A stretch of 64,000 nucleotides of DNA from an uncultured Candidatus Saccharibacteria bacterium (GTDB lineage Bacteria; Patescibacteriota; Minisyncoccia; Phycocordibacterales; PALSA-1337): NCBI GenBank assembly GCA_964558375.1, contig CAZLCD010000003.1, forward strand, positions 155 to 64,154. Direction: 5' to 3'. The stretch's first letter is position 1, and each line of letters starts with the position of its first letter. Below, in pieces: positions 38,702-63,876 of the stretch. The position numbers and the translations under genes were made by a program. A model generated the notes under the pieces. The model saw only the letters and a program-made list of their open reading frames with translations. It was not told the DNA's origin and did no database searches.

Positions 38702-40132
38702 ATGCTTACTGTAATCGGAAATATCAGAATAAATTCCCTCTCACATCTTGAACACTTTAAGAATTCATTAAAATCTTTTGATGGAGCGAGTGATAACTGG
38801 CTAATAAATATCCGTGGAACTTTCCGTGATGAAGCAATTACTTTCCTAAAGAGTGAGTTAGGTAATAAACTAGTACCCTTTAAACTACTGGATGAATCTA
38901 GAGGGTGGATGGTTAATTCCCTTGAAATGCTCAAGGAGGCTAAGTATGACTATGTTTTAGTTTGGAATGAAGATCATCTAAACATTGCATCAGCAAAAGA
39001 TTTGGTTGATGTAGTTTCAGATATGAAAAAGGTAAAAGCTGACTACCTCTGCTATAGTTGGTGGCTTCTGGGAAAGTCTAGAGAAGCTTTTGATAAGTTG
39101 GGAAATAAAATAGGGTTTAAAAAAGAAAAATACATTAGTCACTTAAAACTAGATCAAGATAAGTGGAAAATGATACGAGATACTGGATATCCATATTTCA
39201 TAATATCCATGTGTGGAATTTTTAGAAAAGAATTTCTTCAGTCTATGTGGAAAAAAGACCAAAGAAGATTGCCGTTTTTCTTCAAAAAGATGGTATTCAA
39301 ATTCTTTGGATTGTTCACTAAGCTTAAAATTATGTCTCCTTATGGACACAAGGAGTTGTTTGAGAAGATAAATAGATTTGTATTTAGAAACAAGATTCGT
39401 AAATATCCGACGTATCTTCCTTTTGAAATGGAAAAGGGTCCAGAGAGAGTAGATATGTTACCTCTAAACTTTGCCTTCTCTAACAAAGAAATATTTGCTT
39501 GTATTGACGATAATGTGAATATGGAAGGATACTCATTGAGTGATAGAGGGTTGTATAAAAATTCAAAGAACAATAGACCTATAAAGGAACACCTAGACAC
39601 CATACTTTCAGAGATAAGAACTGTTCTTTCTAAGGTAGATGAAAAACAGGTTGATATGTTTGTTAAGTATATACTTTCTGCAAGAAGAATTGTTGCTTCT
39701 GGGGCGGGAAGAGTTGGAATGGCTGTGAAGGGTTTTGTTATGAGACTAAAGCATATGGGACTTGATGCATATATTCTAGGTGACGCTAACGTTCCCTCGA
39801 TAAAGCCACAAGATCTTTTCTTGGTGTGTTCTGGATCTGGTGAGACTCAGACAATATATGAACTAACTTTAATTGCTCAGAAAAATCAAACACCAATCGC
39901 TCTTGTAACAGGAAATCCTGAATCTCGCATGGGAAAGATTGCTAATACAATAGTTGAGATTAAAGCCCCTTCAAAAGTTAAAAAGGTTGATAACTTTGTA
40001 TCAATACAACCTATGACAACTCTAAACGAACAATCCCTAGCTATATTTTTTGATGCAATAGTTTTGAAGTTGATGGATGAACTGAACGAAACACACGAGA
40101 CTATGTGGGAGAGACATTCTAATTTGGAATAA
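38702..40132 (+). CDS. two-domain protein: uncharacterised N-terminal domain (~300 aa) plus C-terminal SIS (sugar-isomerase) domain
   Basis: C-terminal SIS motifs RIVASGAGRVGMAVKGFVMRLKHMG…LFLVCSGSGETQTIYEL…ALVTGNPESRMGKIANTIVEI, as in GmhA/KpsF/PHI-type phosphosugar isomerases. Confidence 0.6.
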   Translation: MLTVIGNIRINSLSHLEHFKNSLKSFDGASDNWLINIRGTFRDEAITFLKSELGNKLVPFKLLDESRGWMVNSLEMLKEAKYDYVLVWNEDHLNIASAKDLVDVVSDMKKVKADYLCYSWWLLGKSREAFDKLGNKIGFKKEKYISHLKLDQDKWKMIRDTGYPYFIISMCGIFRKEFLQSMWKKDQRRLPFFFKKMVFKFFGLFTKLKIMSPYGHKELFEKINRFVFRNKIRKYPTYLPFEMEKGPERVDMLPLNFAFSNKEIFACIDDNVNMEGYSLSDRGLYKNSKNNRPIKEHLDTILSEIRTVLSKVDEKQVDMFVKYILSARRIVASGAGRVGMAVKGFVMRLKHMGLDAYILGDANVPSIKPQDLFLVCSGSGETQTIYELTLIAQKNQTPIALVTGNPESRMGKIANTIVEIKAPSKVKKVDNFVSIQPMTTLNEQSLAIFFDAIVLKLMDELNETHETMWERHSNLE

Positions 40133-40133
40133 T

Positions 40134-40826
40134 ATGAAGAAGAATATAAAAACTAAAAAGAATAATACTTATGGACTAGCTGCATCTCTAGTATGTGCAG
40201 ATATGTTGAATATAAGAGGAGAGATAGAGAAACTTGAAAGAGGTGGAGTAGAATATATCCACTTTGACGTAATGGATAATCAATTTGTACCAAGATTCGG
40301 ACTTCATCCAGAAATTCTTCAATCAATAAAGAAAATAACTAAGATTCCTGTAGATGTTCATCTAATGGTTGATGATCCAGAGAATGCAATAAAGGTATTT
40401 GCAGACGCTGGAGCAGATATTATAGTAGTTCATGAAGAATCAACAGCTCAACTTCATAGACTAATAAAACTAATAAAAGCTACTGGAAAGAAAGCTGGAG
40501 TTGCTCTAAATCCTGCTACAAGCCTATCAACCCTAGACTATATTCTAAACGATATAGATCTTGTAATGCTAATGGCTATTAATCCTGGAATACTAGGTCA
40601 TAAATTGATTCCTGAAATGATGGACAAGATATCTGCGTTAAAGCTTAAACTTAGAAATTATCCCAATATGATAATAGAAATTGATGGAGGGGTAACACCT
40701 GAAAGTGCTAAAGAAATGGTTAAAAGAGGAGCAAATCTGCTAGTTTGTGGTACTTCAACTATATTTAAACCAGAGGGTGATGTTGATGTAAAGATAAAGG
40801 AATTGAAGAAAATTCTTGATAAATAG
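40134..40826 (+). CDS. rpe: ribulose-phosphate 3-epimerase family protein
   Basis: LAASLVCADMLNIRGEI…YIHFDVMDNQFVPRFGLHP…DVHLMV…MAINPGILGHKLIP…IEIDGGV…CGTSTIF follows the Rpe signature (SILSAD…HxDVMDGxFVPN…DVHLMV…NPGFGGQ…VDGG…GSAIF) throughout. Confidence 0.8.
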   Translation: MKKNIKTKKNNTYGLAASLVCADMLNIRGEIEKLERGGVEYIHFDVMDNQFVPRFGLHPEILQSIKKITKIPVDVHLMVDDPENAIKVFADAGADIIVVHEESTAQLHRLIKLIKATGKKAGVALNPATSLSTLDYILNDIDLVMLMAINPGILGHKLIPEMMDKISALKLKLRNYPNMIIEIDGGVTPESAKEMVKRGANLLVCGTSTIFKPEGDVDVKIKELKKILDK

Positions 40827-40850: not shown

Positions 40851-42056
40851 ATGAAAGTCTTAATCCCGATAGATGAGACAAAGTTCCATTTCGGTGAACT
40901 AACTAAACATACAAACCCTGGTCTAATTCGTGTTGGAAAGAAGCCAATAATTTCATATATTATAGAATCATATCCAAAAGATACTGAGTTCATTTTAGCC
41001 CTAGACTACAAAAAAGATCATATAAAAGATTTCCTAACTCTCGTATATCCTAAACAAAGTTTCAAGATAATCTCGCTATCAGAAATAGATTCTTTTTCAA
41101 AAGAACCTTTTCTATATCATCCAACAAACTTAATTAGAGATATTAAAGCTCTACATAAAGCACGTAAGAATACTTATGATAAGTTTGATAATCTTGATAA
41201 GGTAGATGAGTCACTCTTCTTCTTTGAAGATTTCGCTATAAAATTCTTTGCGGATGGTAGAAAAATAAAGAGTCGTGTGCAGAGAGGGAAGATGTTGGGG
41301 AATCTGGTGCCAAAAACTCTACAGGTAAAAAATAATTTCTATAAATACGCATATATAAAAGGAGATACATATTCTGATGTAGCTACTCCACATAATTTCT
41401 CACAATTCCTGCACTGGGCAAAGGTAAAACTATGGAAGCCGAAGAAACACCTTTCAGAAAAAGAATTCAATAGTGTCTGTTTTGATTTCTATCAAACAAA
41501 GACAAAGGAAAGAATTGCTAAGTTTCTAGATTCTCATAATATTTCAGATTCAGAAATGATAATAAATGGAGAGAAGATTCCATCTATTGAAACTCTGCTA
41601 TCTCAAATTGATTTTGGTCATATTTCATCAGGAATCCAGACACAATTTCATGGAGATCTGATTCTTGAAAACATTCTTCTAGATAAGAAAGAATATACAC
41701 TTCTAGATTGGAGACAAGATTTTGGAGGAGTATTGCATGCTGGAGATATGTACTACGATCTAGCTAAACTTTATCATAATCTAGTTGTTAACCATGACAT
41801 AATAAGTAAGGATAGGTTTGTTATAGACGTTAAGAAGAACAGAGTTATATGTTCAATAGAAAGAAAACCTCATCTCGTTGTATGTGAGAAAACTTTTGAA
41901 GAATTTGTAATATCTCAGAAACTAGACTTAAGAAAGATAAAAATACTAAGAGCTATAATATGGCTAAATATGTCTCCATTACACCATCATCCATTCAGTC
42001 TTTTTCTTTACTACTTCGGGAAGTATAATCTTTGGAAAGCCGTTAATGAAAAATAA
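40851..42056 (+). CDS. fusion protein: degenerate sugar-phosphate nucleotidyltransferase-like N-domain plus APH/choline-kinase-like C-domain (LicC-LicA-like architecture)
   Basis: N-terminus VLIPIDETKFHFGELTKHTNPGLIRVGKKPIISYIIESYPKDTEF is a clear paralogue of the standalone nucleotidyltransferase at 42580 but lacks the G-x-G-(T/S)-R loop. C-terminus FHGDLILENILLDKKEYTLLDWRQDFGG is a kinase catalytic loop. Confidence 0.55.
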   Translation: MKVLIPIDETKFHFGELTKHTNPGLIRVGKKPIISYIIESYPKDTEFILALDYKKDHIKDFLTLVYPKQSFKIISLSEIDSFSKEPFLYHPTNLIRDIKALHKARKNTYDKFDNLDKVDESLFFFEDFAIKFFADGRKIKSRVQRGKMLGNLVPKTLQVKNNFYKYAYIKGDTYSDVATPHNFSQFLHWAKVKLWKPKKHLSEKEFNSVCFDFYQTKTKERIAKFLDSHNISDSEMIINGEKIPSIETLLSQIDFGHISSGIQTQFHGDLILENILLDKKEYTLLDWRQDFGGVLHAGDMYYDLAKLYHNLVVNHDIISKDRFVIDVKKNRVICSIERKPHLVVCEKTFEEFVISQKLDLRKIKILRAIIWLNMSPLHHHPFSLFLYYFGKYNLWKAVNEK

Positions 42057-42578
42057 ATGAAAAAAAAGATAATAAAAAACTTAATATTAGATGTTGACGG
42101 AGTCTTCACTGATGGTCAGTTTCACTATACCACAGAAGGCAAGACTGCAAAGATATTTGGTCCAGATGATAACGATGGTCTAGCTCTAATAAGACCATAT
42201 CTTAATATAGTTGCTGTAACAGGTGACAAGAAGGGGTTTGAGATCACAAAGAAGAGAATTGATGATATGAAAATTCCTCTTTTTCAAGTCAGTACTTTTG
42301 AAAGAATACATTGGATAAAGTCACAAGGATACAATCTTTCAGAAACTGTATACATGGGAGATGGAATATTTGATGCTATGGTTTTTGATAAGGTTGGATA
42401 CAGTATTGCTCCAGCAAATGCATTCCCAGCAATAAAGAAATACGCTGATCATGTTACGAAACTTAGTGGAGGACATGGGGCTGTTGCTGAAGCTTGTCTG
42501 CATCTTCTAGAAAAGTTCTTTAAGAAAGTAGATATGCTTAATTTGAAAATACAGGAAGGAGAGTGGGGAAATAAATAA
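42057..42578 (+). CDS. HAD-superfamily IIIA phosphatase, KdsC-like (sugar-acid/sugar phosphate phosphatase)
   Basis: LILDVDGVFTDGQFHYTTEG (DxDG motif I), VTGDKK (motif II region), YMGDGIFDAMVFDKVG (motif III), and GGHGAVAEACLHLL as in KdsC. 173 aa. Confidence 0.7.
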   Translation: MKKKIIKNLILDVDGVFTDGQFHYTTEGKTAKIFGPDDNDGLALIRPYLNIVAVTGDKKGFEITKKRIDDMKIPLFQVSTFERIHWIKSQGYNLSETVYMGDGIFDAMVFDKVGYSIAPANAFPAIKKYADHVTKLSGGHGAVAEACLHLLEKFFKKVDMLNLKIQEGEWGNK

Positions 42579-42579
42579 T

Positions 42580-43302
42580 ATGAAATATAAAGTACTCATC
42601 ACTACATCAGGTACAGGTTCACGTTTGGGAGAACTGACAAAGAATACAAATAAGGCTATGGTTTTAATTAATGGAAGACCAACCATTAAATATATCTTTG
42701 ATTCATATACAAAAGATACTACTTTCGTAATAACTCTAGGATTTCTAGGTGATCAAGTTAAGGATTTTCTTCTAAAGAGATATCCAGAATATAACTTTGA
42801 ATTTGCTGTTGTAGATAAGTATATAGGAGATGGAAGTAGTCTTCTATACTCAATGCTATGTGCTAAAGACTATCTACAATGTGCATTTATCTTCCATGCA
42901 TGTGACACTATCGTTACAGAAAAGATTCCAGAACCAATAGAGGATTGGGTAATTGGGTATGTCATAGATCCTGCAACAACTACGATGGATGTAAAACAAT
43001 ATCGAAGTCATGATGTTAAGGATGGGTATCTAGCTAAGGTTAATGACAAGGGGGTAATGAAGTTCAATTCAATTCATATTGGTATGACTGGAATATATAG
43101 CTACCAAACTTTTTGGAAAGTCGTAGAAGAGATGTATAAAAATGATCCAACGAATCAGGCTCTAGGAGATGTTCCTGTTATAGAAAAACTTATGGATTTA
43201 GGAGTAAGGTTTAAATGGATTCCTTTTAAAAATTGGCTTGATACTGGTAACCCCCAAGCACTTAAGGAGACTGAACAATTTATTATAAAAAGTAGTTTAT
43301 AA
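42580..43302 (+). CDS. sugar-phosphate nucleotidyltransferase (LicC/RmlA/GlmU N-domain family)
   Basis: VLITTSGTGSRLGELTKNTNKAMVLINGRPTIKYI matches the G-x-G-T-R-L…T…PK…L nucleotide-binding signature. Confidence 0.65.
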   Translation: MKYKVLITTSGTGSRLGELTKNTNKAMVLINGRPTIKYIFDSYTKDTTFVITLGFLGDQVKDFLLKRYPEYNFEFAVVDKYIGDGSSLLYSMLCAKDYLQCAFIFHACDTIVTEKIPEPIEDWVIGYVIDPATTTMDVKQYRSHDVKDGYLAKVNDKGVMKFNSIHIGMTGIYSYQTFWKVVEEMYKNDPTNQALGDVPVIEKLMDLGVRFKWIPFKNWLDTGNPQALKETEQFIIKSSL

Positions 43303-44263: not shown

Positions 44264-45415
44264 ATGAAAATATTTAATGATTATATCGAAAGAAAAAAGA
44301 GTATTATCACTAACAAAGAAGGTTTGGAACATCTATATACATTCAAAAACTTCCCAATTTTTTTTGGTTGCGTAGACTCCCCACAAGATGAGGATTTGTT
44401 TGCTAATATGGAATGGGCTATTGATAAGGAGACGGGAGTAATACAACTTACTAAACTAATACCTCTGGATATTTTGTACCAGGCTCAACATGTTGATGGA
44501 TATGGACCAACTTGGCAACAGTATTATAAAGATCTCGCTGATTATATAGTTAAATATAATCCAGAATTAGTTCTAGAAATAGGTGGTGGACAAGGTCAAT
44601 TAGCTACATTTGTTACAGATAAATTAAAAAATTTAAATTGGACTATAGTTGAACCAAACTCTTGGCATGAGGGAAATGACAGAATTAAGACAGTTTCTGC
44701 TTTTTTTGATAAAAACTTTTTGTACGATAAAAAAGTAGACGCTGTTGTTTTTTCACAAGTACTTGAACATGCTTTTGATCCTAATGAATTTATCTCCGCT
44801 ATCTCTAAGTTTCTAAAACCAGGAGGAAAACTTATATTTGCTTACCCACAACTTGAGGTGTGGCTTAAAAATAAATTTACTAATGCTTTGAATTTTGAAC
44901 ATACAATGTTCCTAACCGATTATTTTGTAGATTTTATCCTAGAATCTAATTCATTTAAAATTTTAGATAAATATACTTACAAAACACACAGTCATTTTTA
45001 TGTAGCTGAACGTCTAGGTGTAGATACTCCAGCTGTTAATCTTGCTAAACTTGATAATAAATATGAATCATACAAAGAGATATTTAATGATTTTATTAAA
45101 TATCATCAAGATATGGTTGATGATATCAATAAAAAAATTGAAAATGCAAAAGACCCAGTGTATTTATTCGGTGCTCATATATTCTCAGAATACCTACTTG
45201 CTTTCGGTCTTAATGATAAAAAGATAGTTTCTATACTAGATAATAGTCCCACTAAGAATAAAAAAAGATTATATGGAACTAGATTTGTTATAGAATCACC
45301 AAAGATTCTAGAAGGTAAGGGTAAGGTTAATCTAATACTGAAAGCTGGAATATATAATGAAGAGATCAAGAAAGACATATTACAAAATATTAACAGTGAA
45401 GTGGAATTTTGGTAA
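44264..45415 (+). CDS. class I SAM-dependent methyltransferase with C-terminal extension (sugar C/O-methyltransferase-like)
   Basis: LVLEIGGGQGQLATFV (motif I), VFSQVLEHAFDP, and ISKFLKPGGKLIF (motif III), plus a C-terminal ~130-aa domain as in three-domain sugar methyltransferases. Confidence 0.6.
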   Translation: MKIFNDYIERKKSIITNKEGLEHLYTFKNFPIFFGCVDSPQDEDLFANMEWAIDKETGVIQLTKLIPLDILYQAQHVDGYGPTWQQYYKDLADYIVKYNPELVLEIGGGQGQLATFVTDKLKNLNWTIVEPNSWHEGNDRIKTVSAFFDKNFLYDKKVDAVVFSQVLEHAFDPNEFISAISKFLKPGGKLIFAYPQLEVWLKNKFTNALNFEHTMFLTDYFVDFILESNSFKILDKYTYKTHSHFYVAERLGVDTPAVNLAKLDNKYESYKEIFNDFIKYHQDMVDDINKKIENAKDPVYLFGAHIFSEYLLAFGLNDKKIVSILDNSPTKNKKRLYGTRFVIESPKILEGKGKVNLILKAGIYNEEIKKDILQNINSEVEFW

Positions 45416-62062: not shown

Positions 62063-62134
62063 GGTTATCTATAGCGGGGTAGAGTAACAGTAGCTCGTCA
62101 GGCTCATAACCTGAAGATTGTCGGTGCAATTCCG
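62063..62134 (+). tRNA. tRNA-like element with CAU anticodon, non-canonical (possible divergent tRNA-Met/Ile2 or pseudogene)
   Basis: Folds as a cloverleaf. Acceptor AGCGGGG/CTCCGCA (A1·A72 mismatch, one G-U). D-stem GAGT/GCTC with a 7-nt D-loop lacking GG. Anticodon stem TCAGG/CCTGA with loop CTCATAA (U33, CAU, A37). 5-nt variable loop. T-stem GTCGG/CCGAC with loop TGCAATT (G at position 55). No encoded CCA. Confidence 0.3.
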
Positions 62135-62220
62135 ACCTCCGCAACAATCAAGAGGTGCTATTGACTTATATTGCATGATATGTTATACTATGTGGGTAGT
62201 ACCTTTACATAGTGAACTTT

Positions 62221-62941: not shown

Positions 62942-63712
62942 GTGCGGTTTAATTTTGTCTATTTATATACTCATGATATAGTGTCATATAACATGAATTC
63001 TAAAAGACACTTATTAAATAAAGTTATACAAGATAGAAAAACTGGAATGTCTCTGGGTGATCTGTCTAAGAAGTATAAGATTTCTAAAAGCACCGTTAGC
63101 TTATGGTGTAATGATATTAAACTTTCAAATAAAGTAAAACTCCTCATAAAAGAAAACTGGCTTATAAAAACTACTTCAGCACGTGCGAAAGGTACAATCA
63201 AAATTAAGCAGAAAAGAATAGATAGTATAGAAAGGGAATATATAGAAGCAAAGAAAATAATTAATACTTTAAGTGACAGAGACCTATTGATCATGGGTGC
63301 TGCTCTGTATTGGGCAGAAGGTAGTAAAAAGGAAACAGGATCAGGATTCAGCTTTATAAATTCAGACCCTCTTATGATTAAGATTATGTATAAATGGTTG
63401 ATAAAGATTATGAATATCAAAAAAGATCAATTAACCATTAACTTAGCCATAAATATAGTTCACAAAGAAAGAGAAAAAGAAATATTGAAATTTTGGTCAA
63501 ATCTGCTAGACTTCAACTTGGGAGCTTTTGGTAATACCACTTTCATAAAGACACCCCATTTGAGGATGTATGATAATCATACAAACTATTTTGGTATGTT
63601 GCGTATCAAAGTTAAATCAAGTTCTTGGTTGAGAAGAAGAATTTTGGGTATGATCAAAGTTTTTACCAAAGAAGCCGACGTAGCTCAGGTGGCTAGAGCA
63701 TCGCACTCATAA
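62942..63712 (+). CDS. LAGLIDADG-type homing-endonuclease-like protein with N-terminal helix-turn-helix region
   Basis: LLIMGAALYWAEGSK resembles the LAGLIDADG/…YWxEGS dodecapeptide variants. N-terminal HTH-like LSKKYKISKSTVSLW. The last ~13 codons of the ORF are read from the 5' half of the downstream tRNA (the stop lies in its anticodon loop), so the real C-terminus is probably shorter. Confidence 0.4.
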   Translation: MRFNFVYLYTHDIVSYNMNSKRHLLNKVIQDRKTGMSLGDLSKKYKISKSTVSLWCNDIKLSNKVKLLIKENWLIKTTSARAKGTIKIKQKRIDSIEREYIEAKKIINTLSDRDLLIMGAALYWAEGSKKETGSGFSFINSDPLMIKIMYKWLIKIMNIKKDQLTINLAINIVHKEREKEILKFWSNLLDFNLGAFGNTTFIKTPHLRMYDNHTNYFGMLRIKVKSSSWLRRRILGMIKVFTKEADVAQVARASHS

Positions 63713-63747
63713 AGCGAAGGTCCCTGGTTCGAGTCCAGGCGTCGGCA
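63674..63747 (+). tRNA. tRNA with CAU anticodon (elongator tRNA-Met or tRNA-Ile2/lysidine type)
   Basis: Acceptor GCCGACG/CGTCGGC. D-arm GCTC-AGGTGGCTA-GAGC. Anticodon loop CTCATAA. 5-nt variable loop AGGTC. T-arm CCTGG-TTCGAGT-CCAGG. Discriminator A. G1-C72 indicates an elongator rather than initiator. No encoded CCA. Confidence 0.8.
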
Positions 63748-63802: not shown

Positions 63803-63876
63803 GCGATCGTAGCTCAACTGGTTAGAGCACCCGCCTGTCACGTGGGAGGTTACGGGTTCGAGCCCCGCCGATCGCG
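63803..63876 (+). tRNA. tRNA-Asp (GUC)
   Basis: Acceptor GCGATCG/CGATCGC. D-arm GCTC-AACTGGTTA-GAGC. Anticodon stem CCCGC/GTGGG with loop CTGTCAC. T-loop TTCGAGC. Discriminator G. No encoded CCA. Confidence 0.8.

Follow-up and report, generated by a model that had tools for sequence, protein, structure and literature searches.

A probable vestigial nucleotidyltransferase domain on a putative sugar kinase, beside an intact paralogue, in an uncultured Saccharibacteria bacterium

Why should a kinase carry part of a nucleotidyltransferase (NTase) at its N-terminus when a gene for a seemingly complete enzyme of this kind lies only two genes downstream? The question is raised by a stretch of 64,000 nucleotides (hereafter the window) from an uncultured Candidatus Saccharibacteria bacterium (contig CAZLCD010000003.1, positions 155 to 64,154 of the forward strand). 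In it, the open reading frame (ORF) that begins at position 40851 (ORF 40851; 40851..42056, + strand) encodes a kinase of 401 amino acids (aa) with an NTase-like N-terminal stub, called WIN in the trees and comparisons, and ORF 42580 (42580..43302, + strand) encodes a standalone NTase of 240 aa. A preliminary description of this DNA had proposed that the standalone NTase was duplicated and that one copy, fused to the kinase, became a pseudo-enzyme domain, an event thought to date the assembly of the operon.

Our analysis points to a different history, which we consider likely: the kinase would carry a vestigial NTase domain, left behind once a paralogue had made that domain redundant, and the case would be one of decay and not of a new kind of system. 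The ancestor of ORF 40851 would have been a bifunctional NTase-kinase fusion of ~525 aa, within a conserved cassette encoding a 6-phospho-3-hexuloisomerase (PHI), an epimerase, the fusion and a KdsC-like phosphatase. A standalone NTase of a separate clade (S), present in the same ancestral cassette, would have rendered the fused NTase domain redundant, and the latter would have lost its catalytic residues first, whereupon in-frame deletions within it would have removed most of its length. The end product would be an alpha/beta stub of ~110 residues, in which a single relic strand and the final helix follow the first ~78 residues. The 401-aa protein would act solely as a kinase, nucleotidyl transfer would be left to the ORF 42580 enzyme, and the stub would persist as a folded appendage packed on the kinase, most likely for stability or solubility in this lineage.

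The remnant domain, its kinase and the neighbouring enzyme

The homology of the two N-terminal sequences, as first proposed, is borne out by pairwise alignment. Residues 2-72 of ORF 40851 and 4-74 of ORF 42580 align without a gap, 31 of 71 positions being identical (44%; E=7e-17 by BLASTP with composition-based statistics), and their Smith-Waterman score of 163 stands against 30.4 +/- 5.4 in 1000 shuffles (maximum 56, z=24.5). Where the standalone copy has the glycine-rich loop TSGTGSRLG, the fused copy reads PIDETKFHF (residues 6-14, 40866-40892), so the reported loss of the loop is confirmed. Two ways in which this comparison could have misled were checked and excluded: the aligned stretch shows no compositional bias, and G-x-G is absent throughout residues 1-120 of ORF 40851, hence there is no shifted motif.

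For a finer delimitation of what remains, profiles were made from 96 fused NTase domains (F profile) and from 116 standalone proteins (S profile). The main part of the stub, residues 1-78 (40851..41084, + strand), consists of strand-helix units corresponding to F-profile positions 3-80; in it the catalytic Lys of the TNK motif has become Pro (TNP, 40911-40919), and the structural GKKP motif is retained (40935-40946). The subsequent junction, residues 79-113 (41085..41189, + strand), appears to have resulted from internal deletions and holds two short NTase relics. The first, PFLYHPTNLI (residues 86-95, 41106-41135), represents the strand of the Mg-binding Asp, PFIYHACDTI in intact copies, with D replaced by N, such that HPTNL stands in place of HACDT and the Mg-binding Asp is gone. 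The second, RDIKALHKARKNTY (residues 96-109, 41136-41177), represents the last NTase helix, with the consensus DIGNxxxLxxAR, and F-profile positions 218-230 are matched by residues 97-109. Altogether, 78 of the 235 columns of the F profile are aligned and ~137 of its positions are deleted; the EGxGxS loop is missing, and ~105-120 columns that form the sugar-binding lobe are absent as well.

The N-domain of ORF 40851 is unmistakably homologous to the fused NTases (E=3.9e-31 against the fused-domain profile), and a Pfam scan of the 401-aa protein gave no PF00483 match. With the G-loop, the catalytic Lys, the Mg-binding Asp, the EGxGxS loop and the sugar-binding lobe all gone, and with them the complete fold of ~230 residues, the fused copy is, judging from its residues, certainly non-catalytic, in agreement with the preliminary description. 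What did not hold is the notion of a whole pseudo-enzyme domain: the similarity comprises only ~78 residues and the two short relics left by internal deletion, which marks the N-domain as a dead remnant of ~110 residues, about one third of an NTase domain.

The catalytic-type paralogue two genes downstream, by comparison, is intact as had been noted. ORF 42580 keeps GTGSR, TNK and HACDT, covers 229 of the 235 profile columns and matches PF00483 at 24.7 bits (cutoff 21.2). Its closest solved relative by sequence is LicC (1jyk, E=2e-7), with HddC (5xhw) also matched, and its 218 homologs are nearly all standalone proteins of ~240 aa spread through Patescibacteria. Against the MurU models NF045697 and NF045761 of NCBIfam it reached 24.1 bits (cutoff 370) and 22.3 bits (cutoff 250), far from either cutoff. 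We presume that ORF 42580 is the active nucleotidyltransferase of the pathway.

The rest of the 401-aa protein, residues 114-401 (41190..42056, + strand), is a kinase domain of the APH/choline-kinase fold whose catalytic motifs are intact, i.e., K131, H267-G-D269...N274 and D286-W-R, all in columns invariant in the family. The Brenner motif H-G-D-x4-N, the Mg-binding Asp, the ATP-binding Lys and the bilobal kinase fold are all present. The domain shares 50-69% identity with family members across ~287 columns. Since the Pfam APH match (PF01636) is weak, 18.2 bits under a gathering threshold of 23.2, the assignment to APH/choline-kinase-like enzymes rests on fold and motifs. Searching solved structures with the sequence of the 401-aa protein gave no meaningful match, and a fold search was used for that reason; with Foldseek, the kinase part found APH(2''), choline/ethanolamine kinases and fructosamine-3-kinase-like proteins (E~1e-5, probability 1.0). 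ORF 40851 is presumed to encode a sugar kinase.

Origin and repeated decay of the fused domain

From where, then, does the stub derive? The homologs of the 401-aa protein are overwhelmingly fusions of ~525 aa, mostly from the candidate phyla radiation (CPR)/Patescibacteria, with a full NTase domain ahead of the kinase; this domain contains TSGTGSRLGELTK, and in most of them TSGTGSRLG is intact. Only WIN and P0002 (413 aa, 62% identical) are ~400 aa long among the best 120 homologs. Such a distribution indicates that the ~525-aa fusion is the ancestral architecture. ORF 40851 shares with that family the kinase and the gene neighbourhood and lacks the full-length N-terminal NTase, and is accordingly best described as its truncated derivative.

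The idea that the standalone NTase was duplicated and one copy fused to the kinase has in its favour that the homology is real, that the G-loop was lost in the fused copy and that a catalytic copy is kept in the operon, but we regard it as very unlikely. The stub scores 96.9 bits with the F profile vs 61.1 bits with the S profile, and ORF 42580 scores 389 bits with the S profile vs 296 bits with the F profile. In a neighbour-joining (NJ) tree of 80 N-terminal columns, WIN and L001 (the locus of the closest truncated relative) are sisters in 99 of 100 bootstraps, and they fall inside an all-fused clade (F) in 93 of 100. The stub is 55% identical to the fused domain of locus L004 vs 44% to its own neighbour ORF 42580, that is, nearer to fused domains in other genomes than to the gene beside it, and it represents one third of a domain only, on a fusion that is common and seemingly ancestral. 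Furthermore, P0004, at 521 aa the closest of the full-length relatives (identity 64% overall and 65% in the kinase domain), has an intact fused loop, and its locus (L004/L005) shows the same gene order, including a HAD phosphatase gene and an S-type NTase gene downstream. Because this full-length fusion already coexists with an S-type gene, the standalone gene predates the truncation. The phylogeny and the profiles thus place the stub in clade F and its neighbour in clade S, a separate and older paralogous clade that is not the source of the stub; nor would the decay date the assembly of the operon, for it seems to have occurred later, inside an old conserved cassette.

Truncation was not confined to the lineage of the window. 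Locus L010 encodes a protein of 406 aa with the same architecture as WIN, found on 7 contigs from 5 sources, and P0248 (403 aa) has the L010-type architecture at 60% identity. In a tree of the kinase domain (286 columns), WIN and L001 join the full-length L004 in 99 of 100 replicates, and L010 joins the full-length L046 in 89-100 of 100. Since each is paired with a different full-length relative, the two truncations would be independent, and we conclude from the trees that truncation arose at least twice. The 80-column NJ tree grouped WIN with L010 in 15 of 100 replicates; we rejected this grouping as an attraction of degenerate sequences, the two being firmly separated by the kinase tree. P0379 (398 aa, 35% identical), in which the stub is smaller still and an S-type NTase lies 2.3 kb downstream, in keeping with what redundancy would predict, is probably a third independent case. 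Ten further short proteins (P0294, P0348, P0417, P0419, P0359, P0329, P0354, P0413, P0369 and P0415) were left uncounted; their first residues already fall within the C-terminal portion of the NTase domain, and they look like gene calls cut at the 5' end.

A standalone NTase was present at every truncated locus examined. Beside the third truncated lineage it is read as two ORFs (158 and 92 aa) in locus L089 (11509-12158), and in the near-identical L090 it runs unbroken to the contig end; the split in L089 is probably a sequencing frameshift.

To what extent this pairing holds in the family was assessed on 80 loci fetched from species-representative genomes (out of 181 confirmed by tblastn) together with loci around selected proteins. 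All ORFs of the fetched loci were scored with profiles for F, S, kinase, HAD, ribulose-phosphate 3-epimerase (RPE) and PHI, and associations were counted on 79 loci after removal of near-duplicates. A standalone NTase occurs in about a third of the loci, either upstream or downstream. Where the fused NTase has a degenerate loop or is truncated, a standalone NTase is present in 13 loci and missing from 3, all of which are on contigs with short flanks; where it is intact, 14 loci have a standalone NTase and 46 do not (Fisher p=3.6e-5, odds ratio 14, in a test blind to kinship). When loss of the Lys is also counted, degenerate copies make up roughly two thirds of the fused domains that have a standalone partner, and 29 of 31 standalone copies are intact. 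Decay is seen in roughly ten or more separate tree branches, and full-length yet degenerate fused domains are retained in some relatives, e.g., L044, L047 and L024.

A peculiar exchange of partners was observed in L023 (835-4378), where an F-type NTase that has lost its catalytic Lys (TNP) is fused to a hexuloisomerase (419 aa), and the kinase is joined to an S-type NTase whose motifs are intact (530 aa).

The family therefore offers a graded series, from intact fusions, through full-length domains in which Arg, Gly or Lys is lost, to the stub in three lineages. As each step of decay accompanies the presence of a paralogue, the series amounts to a natural experiment on the decay of a redundant domain and on which part of it resists loss. 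Pseudo-NTase partners and the decay of domains after redundancy with a paralogue are already known kinds; what sets the present case apart is that the domain is part of a fusion, that its decay is graded and replicated, and that one and the same N-terminal stub was retained convergently. For annotation, it follows that a protein of this type ought to be named a kinase bearing a vestigial NTase stub rather than a bifunctional enzyme, and that the role of pathway NTase ought to be assigned to its 240-aa neighbour.

Retention of the stub and its possible role

If the fused domain was dispensable, one may ask whether the stub is maintained at all. Comparing WIN with L001, the stub is 63% identical, with a proportion of nonsynonymous differences (pN) of 0.237, and the kinase domain is 69% identical, with a pN of 0.183; fastest is the junction segment (residues 77-113), with a pN of 0.40. 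We report pN and identity instead of dN/dS, the synonymous sites being saturated (proportion of synonymous differences, pS, 0.8-0.9; 0.81 in the stub). These values indicate that the stub is under purifying selection. That we are dealing with an artefact or a dying gene, the stub being neutral junk in a misassembly or a pseudogene, is hardly credible. The sequence is metagenome-derived and the junction evolves fast, as such an origin would have it, but the ORF is intact, the identical 401-aa protein occurs on three contigs, one of them from an independent assembly, and the same architecture is found in the 62%-identical relative with a syntenic locus. The conservation of the stub in the face of saturated synonymous sites, the intact motifs of the kinase, and the second truncated lineage with its several sources speak against it as well.

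In predictions by AlphaFold2 (AF2), the whole 401-aa protein reached a predicted local distance difference test score (pLDDT) of 93 and a predicted template modelling score (pTM) of 0.88, and residues 1-113 alone reached 91.5 and 0.81, respectively. The top Foldseek matches of the stub were all sugar-phosphate NTases (MurU 4y7u, 4y7v and 4y7t; GalU, HddC, LicC and IPCT), and the non-catalytic eIF2B, GMPPA and KJC2 were also among its matches. These matches are weak (best E=5e-3; 79-130 columns; TM-score 0.13-0.36 normalised by target length) and span about a third of each target. Of the NTase fold that the preliminary description expected the two proteins to share, the stub does match NTases in predicted structure, but only about one third of the fold is there. 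Taken with the conservation data, the models suggest that the stub is a translated, folded and selected appendage, and it probably has a structural role.

A more ambitious explanation would be that the stub, like the full-length degenerate fused domains, binds the standalone NTase and tethers it to the kinase. We think this improbable, if well worth bearing in mind, and no greater likelihood attaches to the use proposed for such a docking module, namely the hand-over of a sugar phosphate or the control of activity. It would account for the purifying selection on the stub, for the full-length dead fused domains that stand beside an intact standalone NTase in many relatives, and for the recurrence of fused and standalone pairs in separate clades, DPANN archaea included; the non-catalytic NTase-fold proteins among the structural matches of the stub are in line with it. 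The stub, however, lacks the greater part of an NTase domain's surface, the fusion alone suffices in many loci (the 46 with an intact domain and no partner), and kinase-only forms exist. If this adaptor reading were true, kinase and NTase would form a complex through which an unusual sugar phosphate is handed on or gated, and a pseudo-enzyme partnership would have evolved repeatedly in CPR bacteria and DPANN archaea, within a pathway to a nucleotide sugar.

The explanation preferred here, a vestigial domain decaying after redundancy, has points against it too. The association test ignores phylogeny (though the decaying lineages number about ten or more), and both NTase copies are apparently intact in 14 loci, because of which the two NTases may not be simply redundant. 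Pairs of fused and standalone NTases recur in DPANN loci. Full-length homologs made up most of the alignments behind the AF2 models. In the kinase-only relatives P0375 and P0393 the protein is apparently complete and has no stub, so the stub is not universally required, and it may be that a domain is most easily shed, with the start site kept, by deleting an internal piece in frame. Finally, the substrate of the kinase, that of the NTase and the dispensability of the fused domain are, for every member of the family, read from sequence.

As to the DPANN pairs, three loci labelled as DPANN archaea (L071, L081 and L086) have both a fused and a standalone NTase, and the loop of the fused copy in L086 is degenerate (GGVASQMG). 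The standalone copies of these loci group in a separate clade, the sister of which is formed by the fused domains of the same loci, for which reason the pairing there would have arisen, or been kept, apart from the split of F and S in CPR bacteria.

The gene cassette and its putative pathway

The kinase gene is the third of a cassette. The first gene (38702..40132, + strand) encodes a PHI fusion of 476 aa, with an N-domain of ~295 aa and a C-terminal 6-phospho-3-hexuloisomerase (SIS) domain, residues 299-476 matching TIGR03127 at 183 bits (cutoff 160). The second (40134..40826, + strand) encodes a protein of the ribulose-phosphate 3-epimerase family of 230 aa (PF00834 at 212 bits; TIGR01163 at 221 bits, cutoff 212.6). 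Directly after the kinase gene, as in most loci after the fusion gene, comes a KdsC-like HAD phosphatase of 173 aa (42057..42578, + strand), with a Pfam Hydrolase_3 match and TIGR01670 at 81.5 bits, below the cutoff of 106.95. Downstream of ORF 42580 lie genes for FkbM-type and other methyltransferases. The window shares the order PHI, RPE-like, fusion and KdsC-like HAD with most of the ~90 fetched loci, the cassette has one or two NTases, and methyltransferases usually follow it in the loci of relatives. The 181 cassette loci found by tblastn in species-representative genomes belong to CPR/Patescibacteria, DPANN archaea, Bacteroidota and some proteobacteria. A search of the literature for this cassette or for degenerate NTase-kinase fusions found no description, and the cassette, which is common among CPR bacteria, DPANN archaea and some Bacteroidota, may be a more rewarding target than the stub itself.

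By analogy with GmhA/HddA/GmhB/HddC, the pathway would convert a hexose or ketose 6-phosphate into a nucleoside diphosphate (NDP) sugar, the isomerase/epimerase, the kinase, the distal phosphatase and the NTase acting in the order in which the genes are arranged at the locus; the NDP-sugar might then be modified by the methyltransferases. The likeness to this route to GDP-D-glycero-D-manno-heptose extends to logic and gene order, both having a SIS-domain isomerase, a kinase, a HAD phosphatase and an NTase in succession, and HddC structures match the stub as well as ORF 42580. However, the kinase of the window has the APH fold and not that of GHMP kinases, its isomerase is of the 6-phospho-3-hexuloisomerase type, and a 3-epimerase is added. 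A trio resembling HddC/HddA/GmhB, whose products are an NTase of 225 aa, a GHMP kinase of 335 aa and a HAD phosphatase of 166 aa, occurs at 12547-14741 of L001, in the cluster of the closest truncated relative; it is not present in the corresponding part of the window.

Two other systems count among the closest known. AmgK and MurU, the anomeric MurNAc/GlcNAc (N-acetylmuramic acid/N-acetylglucosamine) kinase and the MurNAc-1-phosphate uridylyltransferase of cell-wall recycling in Pseudomonas, likewise combine an APH-fold sugar kinase with a small enzyme of the NTP_transferase fold that activates the product of the kinase; the best structural matches of the stub include MurU structures, and the standalone NTase weakly matches the MurU models. 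But the scores in the window lie far under the MurU cutoffs, the context is one of hexuloisomerase, 3-epimerase, KdsC-like phosphatase and methyltransferases in a glycan cluster, and the family is ancestrally fused in the order NTase-kinase, with the fused NTase degenerate in the window; in the literature on AmgK/MurU only the known two-gene system was found. LicC, the CTP (cytidine triphosphate):phosphocholine cytidylyltransferase, is the nearest solved relative of ORF 42580, and choline/ethanolamine kinases are among the best fold matches of the kinase, LicA being a choline kinase; the logic of an N-terminal NTase and a C-terminal kinase is also shared, a LicCA fusion occurring in some bacteria. 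The kinase of the window, however, is only ~13% identical to choline kinases in structural alignments, and as it is surrounded by sugar-phosphate enzymes, a sugar rather than choline is the more plausible substrate. Of the flanking genes that were examined, none was recognised as a lic gene for transport or transfer. No membership match to AmgK/MurU, LicA/LicC or the heptose pathway was obtained.

As a dead copy beside an intact paralogue, the stub recalls the non-catalytic NTase partners of GMPPA/GMPPB, GlgD/GlgC, the plant AGPase large subunit, KONJAC/VTC1 and eIF2B gamma/epsilon. Proteins of the GMPPA, GlgD, plant AGPase large subunit, KONJAC and eIF2B types keep the whole fold and form complexes with catalytic paralogues, in which they are regulatory. 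The copy in the window, in contrast, retains only a third of the fold and is fused to a kinase; the whole fold with a dead active site that characterises a regulatory pseudo-NTase is not found in it.

Several minor observations concern the remaining genes. The N-domain of ORF 38702 (residues 1-299, 38702-39598) had no Pfam or Protein Data Bank (PDB) sequence match. A profile of the whole 476-aa protein matched a separate ORF of 290-400 aa near the cassette in many other loci, and in the distant L089/L090, which are without PHI and RPE, the matched part is profile positions 1-288 and so covers the N-domain. This domain has the look of a conserved partner to the kinase, HAD and NTase genes. At 6259-7254 of L007, a gene of GatZ/KbaZ type (accessory family of tagatose-bisphosphate aldolase, weak Pfam match) replaces hexuloisomerase and epimerase and sits upstream of the standalone NTase, the fusion and the HAD gene, and in L089/L090 the front end consists of genes for a cupin resembling mannose-phosphate isomerase and for a protein resembling shikimate dehydrogenase. 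It seems that the front end can be exchanged among loci.

In the window, the methyltransferase encoded at 44264-45415 has a weak C-terminal match to PF08484 (20.1 bits, cutoff 23.5), a C-methyltransferase domain of the kind that occurs in NDP-sugar C-methyltransferases, which hints that the product sugar is possibly C- or O-methylated. The region from ~23.5 to 49 kb is a single co-directional glycan gene cluster with a G+C content of about 31-34%, and three tRNA genes lie on the + strand close to the end of the window (62073-62144, 63674-63747 and 63803-63876).

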